A stretch of DNA of 64,000 bases from Escherichia coli (lineage in GTDB: Bacteria; Pseudomonadota; Gammaproteobacteria; Enterobacterales; Enterobacteriaceae), in assembly GCF_044324785.1 (NCBI RefSeq), contig NZ_CP172128.1; one strand, written 5' to 3'. This document shows positions 59,201-64,000 of this stretch, piece after piece. Position numbers: made by a program. Position 1 is the first letter of the stretch. Each line of letters starts with the position of its first letter.

Positions 59201-62200
59201 GCGTCATGTTGTTCTGCGATGCCACTCTCTTCCAGGGCGAGATCCACAAGGGGCTCTGTTCCTGCACGGTACAGTCTGGGGTTGTTTTCGCCATACTCCC
59301 TGAAGGCCAGATCCACCAGGTTGCTTATGATTTGCCGGGTGTCTCCGGGATTACAGGGCTGACCGGTGCCGGTATCCACGCACAGTGCGCAGAGTACAGA
59401 TACCATGAAGTTCTTTTCCGGGGTGGCGGGTTTTTTAGCACCGTACATCACATCAAACAGGTTACGGGTGTGTTCCGGATCATTGCTCAGAATGATCCCC
59501 ACGGCTTCGTCCTTTCTCTGCTCCGGCAGGCTGTCACGGATAAGCTGTACCAGTCCCTGTGCACTGAATCCCTTGTCGATATAGGCAATGAAAGGCAGGT
59601 TCTTCTGGGCTGAGGCTATCTGGATCTCCGACAGTGCGTTGATGAGTACCGATTTGCCCAGACCGGGTGCGCCGGGCGTCAGTTCCGTGTGCTTGTTCTG
59701 TTGTGACGATGCCAGTGCGACCTCCCATGCAGAGCCGTCCTCGGTGTGCATCATCAGATTTCCCTGTCCCCGCCAGACAGAGCCGGCCCTGTTCAGGGGA
59801 AACAGGGAAAGGGCGTGTGAAAGGGGCGGGTAAAGGGGGACTGGACCGGAACCGTGGGAGGCCGCCAGAACCGTGTTCACCCAGGCACGTCTCGGATCAC
59901 CGAAGGTGGTGGTGGTGCCGCATACTCCCCAGCCTTCCAGCGCAGATTTCAGGAGCGCCTGGTTGCGGGTACAGACTTCCCGGCTGTTTCCCCATGTGGT
60001 GGCAACAATGGTCATGATACAGACCGGATCATGTTTGTTGATGTCATTCAGCATCATCACCGAGTCATACATGGGCCGGAGAGGGGAAATAAAGCTGCTG
60101 TAGGTCAGCAGGGTTTTCTTGACCCCAAGCGCCTTCATGCCGCCGGGCATCAGATCCATCCGGATACGCCAGGGGATTGCGCGGGGCACATCCCTGACCA
60201 GCTGGTTGAATGTCCGCAGATTCTGGGGGGGCAGGGTAATGGCGACCATACCGTGCCAGAGGTCACCGGCCTTTATCAGGCTGCCGTGTGTTTCAGGCTG
60301 TGTGGTGAATAACTGCAGATTCAGCGACGGTGCGTGGAATACAGAGGTATCCTCGCCCTGTCGCCAGCCGGCAGGACGGGCATCTTCAGGCAGATGAGGC
60401 TGCCATACTGCAGGTGTGCTGTTGCGCTCCAGTTGACGGCGGATTTCCCGTCCCACTTCATGAATATCCATCAGGCGAACCAGCAGACCATCAGAATCAT
60501 GTGTCAGGGCCTGCTCCAGCGTGTCCAGAAAGGCGTCATGCCGTATTTTGAGTGCGGAAAGTGTCCAGCGCCATGGATCCTGCGCAAATCGGGCTGGCGG
60601 AGCGTGTTCAGCGAGTTTCCTGATACGGGTCTGGTGGTCCTTGCGATCGGTCCGGCTCAGCAGTTCTTCAGAGCTCCAGACGGTCAGCCAGCAGCGTTCC
60701 CGGACAAGCCAGGGGGTGAGCGTGGTGACTTTTTCATCCAGAACGTCCTGAAGCAGGATCCCCGTGCGTGCGATGGATTTTCGCTGGGGTAAGAGCATGG
60801 CTTCGATTTCATCCCTTCCACGCTCCGGATCGCGTTCGAAAACAAAACTGATTTTGTGACCGGTGTTTTTATAGGCAGTGTTCATTCGCTCTGCCAGCGC
60901 TGTAATCAGTGATTCCAGTGTGCCGGGGGCTGTCAGGTCCGGGTTTTCATCCATTTCTTTCAGGGCACCGCTGATTTCAAAGACGGAAAGGTAATACCCC
61001 TGTTTTGTGGTGGCAATGTAGGGGGCTTTCAGCCAGGGGCGGCGTTCGCGGTCCTGCTGGTCCAGACCGATGACGGTGTGCAGATCACAGTAATCGGGGA
61101 AGAATGCGGAAACGGAATACCGTGACAGGGTACTGATACAGTCTTCAATGGCAAAAATAATGCGGTTGATATTCATGGCATGGGGCACTCCGGTAAGGAT
61201 GAATCATCACGGTCTTATATTTTTTGATGCCACAGCAGGGGATGTGGCATGAAAAAACAGCAGAGAAAATAAATAATCTGTTGAGGGGCAGGTGCGTATT
61301 TCTGTAAGCGTCAACGGAGCACCGTATTGACGCTTATTTATTGGTGAGTACTACGTTCCATGGCAGGAGTTCATCAACTCGGTTGGAAGGCCATTCCGGC
61401 AGTACGCTCAGGATATGGCGCAGATACGCTTCCGGAGCGATACCGTTCAGACGGCAGGTGCCGATCAGCCCGTACAACAGTGCTCCACGCTCGCCGCCGT
61501 GATCGCTGCCAAAGAACATAAAGTTTTTCTTTCCGAGACAGACTGCACGAAGCGCTCTTTCCGCAGCATTATTATCCGCCTCCGCCAGACCGTCATCACT
61601 GTAATAACAGAGGGCATCCCACTGATTCAGTACATAGCTGAACGCTTCGCCCAGTCTGGATTTTTTCGACAGCGTACCATTCTTCTCCACCATCCATTCA
61701 TGCAGCGACGTCAGTAACACTTTGCTTCGCTGCTGCCTGACGGCAAGACGCTCTGACTCCGGTAATCCCCGTATTTCATCCTCGATGGCGTACAGTTCAC
61801 TGATTCGCTTCAGGGCTTCTTCTGCCGTCGCACTTTTGCTGCTGATGTATACATCGTGGATTTTTCGCCGGGCATGGGCCCAGCACGCAACTTCTGTCAG
61901 TGCACCACCTTCACGTTCTGCACTGAACAACCTGTCGTAACCTGTGAACGCATCCGCCTGCAGGATACCCCGGAAGGGGCGGAGGTGTTGCTCCGGGTGT
62001 TTCCCCTGCCGGTTCGGCGAGTACGCGAACCAGACCGCTGGAGGAGATGACGAACCCACATTGCGATCATCCCGGACATACGTCCAGATACGCCCTGTTT
62101 TCGCCTTTTTCTGACCCGGTGCCAGTACCTTTACCGGTGTGTCATCAGTGTGAACCTTGCGGGTGTTCATTACATAACGGTACAGGGCATCATTCACCGG

Positions 62201-64000
62201 TGTCATTAACTGGCAGCACGCGTCAACCCAGTTGGAGAGTAAGGCCCGGCTCAGTTAGACACCCTGGCGGGCAAAGATTTCACTCTGACGATACAGTGGC
62301 AGATGTTCGCAGTATTTTCCCGTTAACACGCGGGCAAGTAATCCGGGGCCCGCGATACCACGCTCTATCGGGCGGGACGGCGCCGGTGCTTCAACAATAC
62401 AGTCACATTTTGTACAGGCTTTTTTTACCCGTTCTGTGCGGATCACTTTCAGGGCACTGCTCACCAGTTCCAGCTGTTCAGCGCTGACTTCCCCCAGATA
62501 ATCCAGCTCACCGCCACACTCCGGGCAACAGCTTTCTTCTGGCTCCAGGCGGTGTATTTCACGGGGAAGGTGTGCCGGTAACGGACGACGATGGCGCGAC
62601 TGTCGCAACTGGCGGGGAACCTGAGGATCGTCTTCCCGCCCACTGTAACGATCGCTGTCCTGCTCACGTTGTTTCAGCAGAGCCTCAGCCAGTTCAACTT
62701 CACGACGCAGTTTTTCAGAACGGGTACCGAACAGCATCCGGCGCAGTTTTTCTATCTGAGCCCGCAGATGTTCTATTTCCCGTTCATCTTCTTCGATCTT
62801 TTCTTCGGCACGTGTCAGTGCAGAGCGCAGGAAGGCTTCCGTCTCTTCAACCAGACTCAGTTGCTGGTCTTTCTGACGGAGGGCTTCAGCCTGCTCAGAG
62901 AGCAACCTTTCCAGCTCTGCGATGCGAATGAGGTATTTCTGACTCATGACCGTTTTTATAATGCGGTCAGGAGTTTTTTACAACATTGTCAGTGAGTTAC
63001 GGCTGGATGTTTTTGGCTGACGCCAGTCCAGCTTATCGAGGAGCATTGCCAGTTGCGAGCGGGTAATGGATACCTTGCCGTCACGTACCGCAGGCCAGAT
63101 AAACTGGCCTTCCTCCAGGCGTTTGGTGAACAGGCACAGACCATCAGCATCAGCCCAAAGAATTTTGACGGTGTCACCCCGTCGGCCACGGAAGATAAAC
63201 AGGTGACCGGAGAAGGGATTATCATTCAGCACATGTTGTACCTGTTCTCCCAGTCCGTTGAAGGATTTACGCATATCGGTAACGCCGGCAACGAGCCAGA
63301 TACGGGTACCTGATGGGAGTGAGATCATCTTCCCCTCCCGGTCAGTTCACGGATCAACACTGTGAGCAGCTCTGGCGATGGATTTTCCAGCGTCATGTTA
63401 CCGTGACGGAATTCCACCTTGCAGGAACTGGCACTGACTCTGGTCTGAGTGGAAGTGGATAAAGACGGCGCAATGGCCGCCACAGGTTCTTTCTGCTCAT
63501 CCGGCGTTATTTCTACAGGTAATAATTCAACGCCAGTGTCAGAAGAGGTCGTTACCGGAAGACGCCGCGAAACACGCCCTTCGTTCTGCCAGAGCCTGAG
63601 CCATTTGAAAATAACATTATCATTGACGCCATTTTCACGTGCAATCTGTGCAACACAAGCTCCAGGTTGTGATGCCAGTTCCACCATACGAAGTTTGAAT
63701 TCATTCGAATAGTTTTTACGAGGTTCTTTTCGCCAGTCCTGTAATTCCATACTTAGATGTCCGTCTATATCAGATGGGCGTCTAAGTTACCAATTCTCGT
63801 CTGATGGCTACATACGGCGGTCAGTTTACGCTTACGTATTTCTGTGTGATTACAGTAAATAATAAAAATGTAATAAGGTGGAAACACGCTGTCAGCGTAG
63901 TGAATTTACTGGCGGATAAGTGATTTTATTAATATGTACAACAATACATTTTCTTTTTTCATTTCGTATAAATACAGGGGGGATATAAAAGAAACGGAGA

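Follow-up and report, generated by a model that had tools for sequence, protein, structure and literature searches.

Organization of the region upstream of traU

The window, i.e. the whole stretch of Escherichia coli DNA that was analyzed (64 kb), carries an insertion sequence directly upstream of the plasmid transfer gene traU (Table 1). A sequence-only reading had placed an IS66-family element at 61294-63845. The element was found there; the stated interval overshot by 2 nt on either side, and the IS proper occupies 61304-63835. The earlier statement that it lies just upstream of traU also held, with a gap of 127 nt from the ATG or 115 nt from the alternative GTG instead of about 110 bp. As had been proposed for the IS and the tra genes, tnpA, tnpB, tnpC and traU are all located on the minus strand.

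The gene previously described as traU-like is a true IncI-type traU. The N-terminal 492 aa of its product are 74% identical to pESBL TraU in an ungapped alignment, its length of 3,045 bp is the same in pESBL, and the gene order is traT...traU-V-W-X-Y-excA; both similarity and synteny thus assign it to the transfer-required TraU. In IncI1 pESBL, traU-traY are required for transfer. Searches of TraU against Pfam, NCBIfam and PDB sequences gave no match. The insertion is carried by an IncK2/Z conjugative plasmid of the I-complex and lies in a non-coding leader of about 176 bp, between traU and a small ORF downstream of traT for which Pfam yielded no family. The traU leader folds with -27.9 kcal/mol (z = -3.1), and a hairpin is also present at the equivalent leader position of IncI1 pESBL. 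An Rfam scan of the IS and of the traU leader gave no match.

Table 1. Features of the traU-upstream region; positions refer to the window.
Feature	Position	Strand	Remarks
traU, IncI-type, 1,014 aa, first gene downstream of the IS	58132..61176	-	ATG start; 61188 if GTG is used
Stable stem-loop in the traU leader, between insertion site and traU	61213..61264	-	Inverted-repeat pair
Left target-site duplication, 8 bp, GTATTTCT	61296..61303		Single copy in empty-site relatives
ISEc23 (IS66 family)	61304..63835	-	2,532 bp; genes co-directional with traU
IRR, terminal inverted repeat at the tnpC end, starts GTAAGCGTCAACGG	61304..61327		24 nt, 83% complementary to 63812-63835
tnpC, DDE transposase pseudogene	61334..62947	-	230-aa and 290-aa ORFs
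ISEc45 (IS110 family) insertion site, unoccupied here	61507..61524		Occupied in two other ISEc23 copies
Premature TAA stop in tnpC (GAA in other copies; E231*)	62255..62257	-	In-frame
tnpB, IS66 accessory protein, intact	62978..63328	-	PF05717, E = 1.1e-36; NF033819, 120.9 bits (cut-off 50)
tnpA, IS66 accessory HTH protein, intact	63325..63750	-	PF01527; NF047595, 83 bits (cut-off 74)
IRL, terminal inverted repeat at the tnpA end	63812..63835		Pairs with 61304-61327
Right target-site duplication, 8 bp, GTATTTCT	63836..63843		Identical to left copy
Weak sigma-70-like site CTGACA-17-TACATT in the native spacer	63867..63895	-	9/12 positions; consensus match only
Small ORF preceding traU in IncK2/Z plasmids, 3' end	63892..64000	-	Runs off the window

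Assignment to ISEc23 and defect of tnpC

In the IS66/IS679 family, three ORFs follow one another, the third encoding the DDE transposase; the terminal repeats are imperfect, and the target is duplicated over 8 bp. The definition of the family is reportedly due to Han et al. (2001) and Gourbeyre et al. (2010), two papers that PMC6778807 cites. The window element shares the three-ORF plan, the DDE transposase in the third ORF, the imperfect repeats and the 8-bp duplication. Its ORFs follow each other in the order tnpA, tnpB and tnpC, with a tnpA/tnpB overlap of 4 nt and the tnpC start at 62947. The TnpB_IS66 accessory protein is encoded, the leucine zipper, zf-IS66 and DDE_Tnp_IS66 domains of TnpC are all present but split by a stop codon, and the terminal inverted repeats start with GTAAGCG. 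The IS66-family identity proposed earlier is therefore borne out by Pfam and NCBIfam matches of all three genes.

By ISfinder convention, copies with more than 95% nucleotide identity represent the same element. The window copy is 99.84% identical (2,528/2,532 nt) to the copy of pEK499 (NC_013122), which is named ISEc23 by RefSeq. The pEK499 element has the same 2,532 bp, the same tnpA-tnpB-tnpC layout, GTAAGCG-type ends and the same RefSeq protein accessions for TnpA and TnpB, and it also shows an 8-bp duplication, TTTTATGT. The window copy differs from it by E231* and a D-to-A exchange near the C-terminus of TnpC and by its insertion site.

The intact transposase reading frame of an autonomous IS was not found, since codon 231 of tnpC is TAA. 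LZ_Tnp_IS66 and zf-IS66 precede the stop, which falls at about position 36 of the DDE profile, and DDE_Tnp_IS66 and DDE_Tnp_IS66_C follow it; the C-terminal part scored 306 bits with NF033517. Because E231* cuts TnpC just before the DDE catalytic domain, the traU-upstream ISEc23 copy is unable to move by itself. The identical tnpC of the sister plasmid pLH10-b-1-A (see below) is annotated by RefSeq as a pseudogene ('internal stop'). The wild-type base was present at this codon in 38 of the other ISEc23 copies that were retrieved, and of 2,567 matching E. coli records only 2 contained the mutant 61-mer.

Simple insertion and related plasmids

The intact 8-bp duplication reported earlier was confirmed, GTATTTCT being present at 61296-61303 and 63836-63843; 8 bp is the length of the IS66 target duplication (PMC6778807). 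By chance, the same 8-mer would abut both exact ends of the IS with a probability of about 1.5e-5. More decisive is that the IS-free flanks, joined with a single GTATTTCT, are contiguous in 218 PLSDB plasmids, so that the comparison with plasmids lacking the insertion, which had been suggested, provided more than 200 relatives with an uninterrupted site. The empty site was confirmed base by base in pTB-nb2 (99.2%) and pF1022-2. By this comparison, the IS upstream of traU is a true simple insertion via ordinary transposition, as the sequence-only reading had held.

The insertion is common to at least three sampled sequences, namely the window, pLH10-b-1-A (1 mismatch to the window in 15.2 kb) and SKEX01001227.1, a contig from a metagenome with 5 mismatches over 9.2 kb. 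The window plasmid is a sister of pLH10-b-1-A and distinct from that record. Identity of the window with NZ_CP100531.1 was rejected, as ISCro1 is absent, an extra IS3-family element is present and about 30 sites differ; the coordinates of that record match the window only from 38966 onwards. A scan of genome contigs resulted in only 5 loci. The insertion as such is ordinary and already known, being annotated in the sister record, and represents one more copy in an IS-rich plasmid.

Origin of the traU-upstream copy

The window spans only 64 kb, and the second ISEc23 copy is known from pLH10-b-1-A, in which ISEc23 is present twice besides numerous other IS elements. There, the E231* allele is found at a second site inside IS1414, with the target duplication CGCTGTTT, and the same site is occupied in pF1022-2, whose traU site is empty and whose tra backbone is only 98.9% identical. 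Copy 2 of pLH10-b-1-A equals the window copy at every site that is variable among the five ISEc23 copies compared, which agrees with the earlier view that the insertion is probably recent; the traU copy and the ISEc23 copy of pF1022-2 differ by 1 nt. An identical 1,428-bp ISEc45 is located inside copy 2 of pLH10-b-1-A and inside the ISEc23 of C. koseri P1.

The IS1414-borne ISEc23 is the older site in the plasmid lineage and carries the same rare E231* allele. Since this allele sits in IS1414, including in pF1022-2 with its empty traU site, the traU copy most likely arose recently by copying of a resident ISEc23 that was defective beforehand, with transposase acting in trans. The resident element in IS1414 would have given rise to a new copy upstream of traU, with duplication of the 8 bp GTATTTCT, and TnpC would have been supplied by another ISEc23 in the cell. 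No donor of such TnpC was detected among the sequences searched, all of them outside the host chromosome. ISCro1 was considered as transposase source and rejected; it is absent from the window, and its end in the sister plasmid (GTAAGCGACTCG...) departs from that of ISEc23 after the first 8 nt.

The identity of the two copies could alternatively stem from gene conversion within one plasmid. A wild-type ISEc23 would then have inserted autonomously upstream of traU and later received the nonsense mutation from the defective copy, and the two copies of pLH10-b-1-A are indeed direct repeats whose match at all sites variable among five copies is expected from conversion as well as from recent copying. 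This course of events is nevertheless unlikely, as it needs one more event, both copies agree at all four sites, scattered across 1.3 kb, that set the allele apart from pEK499, and the stop is already present in the IS1414 copy of pF1022-2, which never had a traU copy. Far more improbable still is an arrival of the IS within a larger rearrangement, by recombination of IS copies or cointegrate resolution, with a coincidental 8-bp repeat. The abundance of IS elements and the two ISEc23 copies in the sister plasmid would suit such an origin, as would the IS66-linked rearrangements in two relatives, one lacking the right flank (L004) and one with foreign DNA beside the IS (L005). However, more than 200 plasmids have an uninterrupted tra region with which the two flanks line up collinearly, and removal of the IS plus one 8-mer restores exactly the uninterrupted sequence, so that the empty-site comparison already refutes it.

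Expression of traU-traY

On the tra strand, a promoter scan of the IS-traU interval detected no sigma-70-like site, and the weak promoter-like site upstream of the IS is now 2.5 kb farther from traU. A hybrid promoter including the outward TTGACG in the IS end was rejected, since the flank contains no -10 at the right distance and the scan found none. Within the IS, a consensus scan of the tra strand identified no convincing intrinsic terminator and one weak terminator-like site only. In pLH10-b-1-A, which encodes a NusG-family TraB, no pseudogene was found among the other tra, trb, pil and nik genes. The promoter-free IS-traU interval, the single weak terminator-like site, TraB and the lack of other transfer pseudogenes together make read-through of the IS into traU plausible. 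Transcription of traU-traY would accordingly proceed in the sense direction through the 2.5-kb IS, from upstream tra promoters and/or IS promoters, and expression would probably be lowered, not abolished. The roughly 0.9 kb of tnpC left untranslated after the stop could exert Rho-dependent polarity on traU. A literature search for expression or transfer data on plasmids with the insertion found none.

A strongly polar insertion, with traU-traY silenced and the plasmid no longer self-transmissible and kept by vertical inheritance or a helper plasmid, is possible, albeit somewhat doubtful. The promoter-free interval fits this reading too, as does uncoupling of translation over about 0.9 kb by the tnpC nonsense codon. 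In IncI1, the traT-traU spacer of only 90 bp has no obvious promoter, which suggests co-transcription, and transfer of the IncI1 plasmid pESBL depends on traU-traY. Moreover, other plasmids tolerate ISEc23 inside traU or traT, and therefore natural I-complex plasmids with dead transfer genes exist. Complete silencing is opposed by the lack of a convincing intrinsic terminator on the tra strand of the IS, its sense orientation, the NusG-family TraB of the sister plasmid and the presence of the insertion allele in three separately sampled sequences, although vertical spread could also explain the latter. Classical polar IS insertions in operons are those of IS1 and IS2 in gal and lac. As in these cases, an element, here of 2.5 kb, separates essential downstream genes of a long operon from the genes or promoters that precede them; the polarity is putative here, and the element is in sense orientation and has no strong predicted terminator.

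A recurrent target of ISEc23-type elements

The searches for further insertions covered only about 0.5-1 kb around the traU start and revealed that ISEc23-type elements have entered the traS-traU region ten times independently in I-complex plasmids. Seven of the ten cluster at 82-128 nt ahead of traU and include both orientations, and three occupy consecutive nucleotides. From these mapped positions, the traU leader is a recurrent target of ISEc23-type elements. The IS66 family is not known for a marked target preference, whereas a 47-bp stretch of one plasmid leader has here received seven independent insertions. Neither this recurrence nor the tnpC stop nor the sharing of the insertion among sampled sequences had been noted in the sequence-only reading.

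Several explanations of this clustering were discarded. Selection for read-through, derived from a uniform tra orientation, was an artefact of IS queries in one orientation, and inverted IS-end queries retrieved four insertions in the opposite orientation. A local target motif was rejected as the cause, since a matrix of 81 unrelated ISEc23 sites (G at position 1, A/T at 2-6 and C at 8) is weak, with about 1.6 bits in total, and the ranks it gives to the hotspot positions are only within the upper 0.6-16% of the window. Tethering by an IR-like CGTATT motif was rejected for lack of enrichment near 81 other sites, and a nearby hairpin as general cue was rejected because the sequences beside 74 other sites were no more stably folded than control segments. 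No relevant publication on the strain, the plasmids, IS66 hotspots or IS66 near traT/traU emerged from a literature search. Only tentatively, the traU leader of I-complex plasmids (IncI1, K, B/O, Z) may be a true mechanistic hotspot for ISEc23-type elements, acting via an unrecognised target cue; local DNA structure or a bound protein would then be candidate cues.

Implications

Taken as a whole, the explanation comprising an ISEc23 insertion with the E231* defect, a resident copy mobilised in trans, read-through to traU-traY and a recurrent target is given a probability of about 0.85. Since conjugation needs traU-traY, the insertion may alter the spread of a colicin- and EAST1-carrying poultry plasmid lineage. 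Of modest wider interest is the evidence from sequence that ISEc23 moved despite a null transposase. The 47 bp upstream of traU, which ISEc23-type elements have entered at least seven times across different plasmids, offer a concrete site for testing the target choice of IS66 elements, which is poorly understood, and if the hotspot is a true one, it could be a recurrent natural switch on plasmid transfer.

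Identity and site of the element

The IS66-family element that the sequence-only reading had placed at 61294-63845 upstream of traU is present; its true limits are 61304-63835 and, with the duplication included, the earlier span overshot by 2 nt at either end. As had been claimed, an intact 8-bp duplication, GTATTTCT, stands on both flanks, and the element lies on the strand of the tra operon, with tnpA, tnpB and tnpC all on the minus strand like traU. The NCBIfam assignments of TnpA, TnpB and TnpC were consistent with those from Pfam. Only 4 of 2,532 positions differ from the copy on pEK499 (NC_013122), which RefSeq names ISEc23. 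Such IS66-family sequence is very widespread: among 5,426 complete E. coli genomes, matches to at least 80% of the element were found in 2,488 and a 61-nt ISEc23-type tnpC segment in 1,830.

For the comparison with IS-free relatives, the empty site was rebuilt by joining the two flanks through one GTATTTCT (1,561 bp) and searched in PLSDB. It was contiguous in 218 plasmids, which bears out a simple insertion; a lone GTATTTCT was read base by base at the site in pTB-nb2 and pF1022-2. With a shorter rebuilt site of 361 bp, 60 records taken from along the ranked matches were compared, and only one, a plasmid already known to bear the IS, lacked an unbroken match. The feature is thus an ordinary insertion of a known IS, correctly observed and already annotated in a public record.

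Features in the window and, where named, in related records
Feature	Position	Strand	Remarks
ISEc23	61304-63835	minus	2,532 bp
Terminal inverted repeats	61304-61327, 63812-63835		24 nt, imperfect, 83% complementary, start GTAAGCG
Target duplication GTATTTCT	61296-61303, 63836-63843		8 bp, one on each side of the IS
tnpA	63750-63325	minus	Pfam HTH_Tnp_1
tnpB	63328-62978	minus	4-nt overlap with tnpA; Pfam TnpB_IS66
tnpC	62947-61334	minus	Pfam LZ_Tnp_IS66, zf-IS66, DDE_Tnp_IS66, DDE_Tnp_IS66_C
In-frame TAA of tnpC	62257-62255	minus	E231*
ISEc45 site in ISEc23	61507-61524		vacant; filled in L139 (NZ_CP100531.1, record 19925-23903) and L003 (C. koseri P1)
traU, IncI-type	61176-58132	minus	1,014 aa; similarity to pESBL TraU, synteny
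traU-leader stem-loop	61213-61264		stable; T-run and A-run at its sides
Weak promoter-like site	63895-63867	minus	upstream of the IS
Small-ORF region	63892-64000		continues in L001, 15093-15898
Empty ISCro1 site	38966-38973		single CGTTTCCT
IS3-family element	~2761-4093		
IS3 copy	40568-41225		
IS1414 pseudogene	~41918-43126		bears EAST1 enterotoxin gene astA (sister-record annotation)
Empty ISEc23 site in IS1414	42940-42947		
Rfam matches, all six	51473-51629, 52193-52350, 38366-38523, 48194-48283, 234-350, 34702-34788		Rfam

Relation to the sister plasmid

Over its final 15.2 kb, the window has a single mismatch to pLH10-b-1-A (NZ_CP100531.1), an IncK2/Z plasmid of 169 kb from poultry in Switzerland. 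Identity of the window with that record was ruled out by the ISCro1 site of pLH10-b-1-A, which is empty in the window, by the IS3-family element at ~2761-4093, which the record lacks at the corresponding position, and by about 30 further differences, mostly within the IS3 copy at 40568-41225. Apart from pLH10-b-1-A, no record of PLSDB or of the complete E. coli genomes contained the IS junction. The metagenome contig SKEX01001227.1 has an identical right junction with 5 mismatches in 9.2 kb of flank, so three or more sequences, each sampled separately, share the insertion. It is older than the ISCro1 and IS3 events that separate the two sister plasmids.

The Rfam matches in the window comprise two sok antitoxin RNAs beside two hok genes, a STAXI RNA, an AgrB antisense RNA and two ALIL pseudoknots in IS3-family elements. 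The astA-bearing IS1414 has the empty form of a site that ISEc23 fills in another IS1414 copy of pF1022-2 and pLH10-b-1-A.

A defective transposase allele and its probable spread

In tnpC, an in-frame TAA replaces the GAA codon of other copies (E231*) and interrupts the DDE domain profile near its position 36, and RefSeq flags an internal stop in the identical tnpC of pLH10-b-1-A. The allele is rare: 38 other fetched ISEc23 copies were wild type, and of the 2,567 E. coli records that matched, only 2 had the mutant 61-mer: pLH10-b-1-A, in which it occurs twice, and the French plasmid pF1022-2. In pLH10-b-1-A, the second copy lies within IS1414 beside an autotransporter gene, has its own duplication CGCTGTTT and, a nested ISEc45 aside, equals the window copy at all sites varying among the five ISEc23 copies compared. 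In pF1022-2, ISEc23 also occupies that IS1414 site and differs from the window copy by one base; there the traU site is empty and the TraU protein identical, with a tra backbone only 98.9% identical.

On the simplest reading, the stop arose first in the IS1414-borne copy; later, in the lineage of pLH10-b-1-A, a duplicate of that copy reached the traU leader, and ISEc45 entered the older copy after that duplication. Since a TnpC-null element moves only with TnpC from another copy, we infer from these sequence comparisons that the broken allele was moved by trans-mobilisation. Gene conversion between the two copies would also make them identical and is the less economical explanation. The window's own plasmid presumably also has the second, IS1414-borne copy, which would lie outside the window.

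An identical 1,428-bp ISEc45 (IS110 family) was found at the same position in two ISEc23 copies of different SNP backgrounds, which suggests that ISEc45 targets ISEc23 site-specifically. Metagenome contigs such as L036 likewise contain ISEc23::ISEc45 composites, which are 3,978 bp long and have a duplication of their own.

Recurrent insertion upstream of traU

With the traU start as anchor and both orientations of the IS as queries, searches that reached about 0.5-1 kb from traU returned ten ISEc23-family insertions of independent origin in I-complex plasmids (IncI1, K, B/O and Z). Nine have an 8-bp duplication of their own; in the tenth, on pNMBU-W12E19_01, the right end of the element has been lost.

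ISEc23-family insertions near traU, with distances counted from the traU ATG
Plasmid	Position	Orientation to tra	Duplication or remark
Window allele	127 nt upstream	co-directional	GTATTTCT
pCP55-141k	126 nt upstream	co-directional	CGTATTTC
C. koseri P1	~105 nt upstream	co-directional	TAATATGT
pNMBU-W12E19_01	~102 nt upstream	co-directional	left junction only
ETEC plasmid	inside traS	co-directional	
PCN061p5	inside traU	co-directional	
pC16EC0241-1	128 nt upstream	opposite	TATTTCTG
pEC-16-35-4	82 nt upstream	opposite	GAAAAAAC
pWP8-S17-ESBL-05_1	113 nt upstream	opposite	TTTTTGAT; a 91%-identical relative of the IS
pU12A_B	inside traT	opposite	

Seven of the ten fall in 47 bp, and three of these lie at successive nucleotides. 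The clustering can be put down in part to selection against insertions that disrupt essential genes, though not for the three neighbouring positions. The general target preference of ISEc23 at 81 unrelated sites (loci L011-L135) is palindromic, with G at position 1 of the duplication (0.42), A/T at 2-6, C at 8 (0.42) and G at 10 (0.47), a C one base ahead of the duplication being inferred by mirror symmetry; it is too weak to account for the hotspot. Neither an IR-like motif, which lacked enrichment at other ISEc23 sites, nor local structure, the flanks of other sites not being unusually structured, was retained as a cause. An apparent bias in orientation was traced to the design of the queries; four of the ten insertions are opposite.

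In pCP55-141k (L005, 2828-7531), a single duplication flanks a 4.7-kb unit in which 2.2 kb of foreign DNA with an MFS transporter precede an ISEc23-like element. The foreign part opens with GTAAGCG and matches IncF plasmids over its first 325 bp; by way of a surrogate end, the IS may have taken neighbouring DNA along.

traU, its leader and plasmid transfer

TraU residues 1-492 are 74% identical, ungapped, to TraU of the IncI1 plasmid pESBL, and traV, traW, traX, traY and excA follow downstream; TraU had no sequence match in Pfam, NCBIfam or PDB. The IS does lie upstream of this gene; the distance is 127 nt when counted to the ATG and 115 nt to an alternative GTG, not the roughly 110 bp first estimated. 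The leader stem-loop is a terminator on neither strand, and pESBL has one at the equivalent position with a different loop (L136, 1527-1560). Between traT and traU, IncK2/Z plasmids have two small ORFs of 127 and 141 aa, neither with a Pfam family, that are absent from IncI1; the C. koseri P1-type leader also lacks the first, divergence beginning directly after GTGTGATTACA.

In pESBL, traU, V, W, X and Y are required for transfer according to transposon-insertion sequencing (PMC4288162), and the traT-traU spacing of 90 bp suggests that traU is normally co-transcribed with the genes upstream. Consensus scanning of the tra strand gave no promoter-like site between the IS and traU, and one weak site each upstream of the IS and within the 3' end of tnpC; the outward TTGACG of the IS end, read by eye, has no -10 partner in the flank. 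Inside the IS, the same strand yielded only one feeble terminator-like hairpin, below the yield of shuffled sequence. The sister plasmid codes for a NusG-family TraB and for TraC, and its other tra, trb, pil and nik genes bear no pseudogene flags. Taken together, these observations point to traU-traY being expressed from transcription that reads through the IS, probably at a lowered level.

The untranslated 0.9 kb past the nonsense codon could add Rho-dependent polarity. Plasmid NusG paralogues have been discussed as operon-specific antiterminators (PMC6391919), and TraB, if active on the tra operons, could blunt the polar effect of IS insertions. The annotation of TraB in the sister plasmid (L010, 35726-37038; record 167125-168437, beyond the window) is that of a NusG-family antiterminator. 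On the sequence evidence, retention of transfer is given a probability of roughly 0.5-0.6, and its loss is the less likely outcome. The literature reports no transfer tests for this or other IS-bearing plasmids, and the caution of the sequence-only reading on transfer function is reasonable. Wider interest lies only in the broken tnpC, the evidence of mobilisation in trans and the hotspot in the traU leader.
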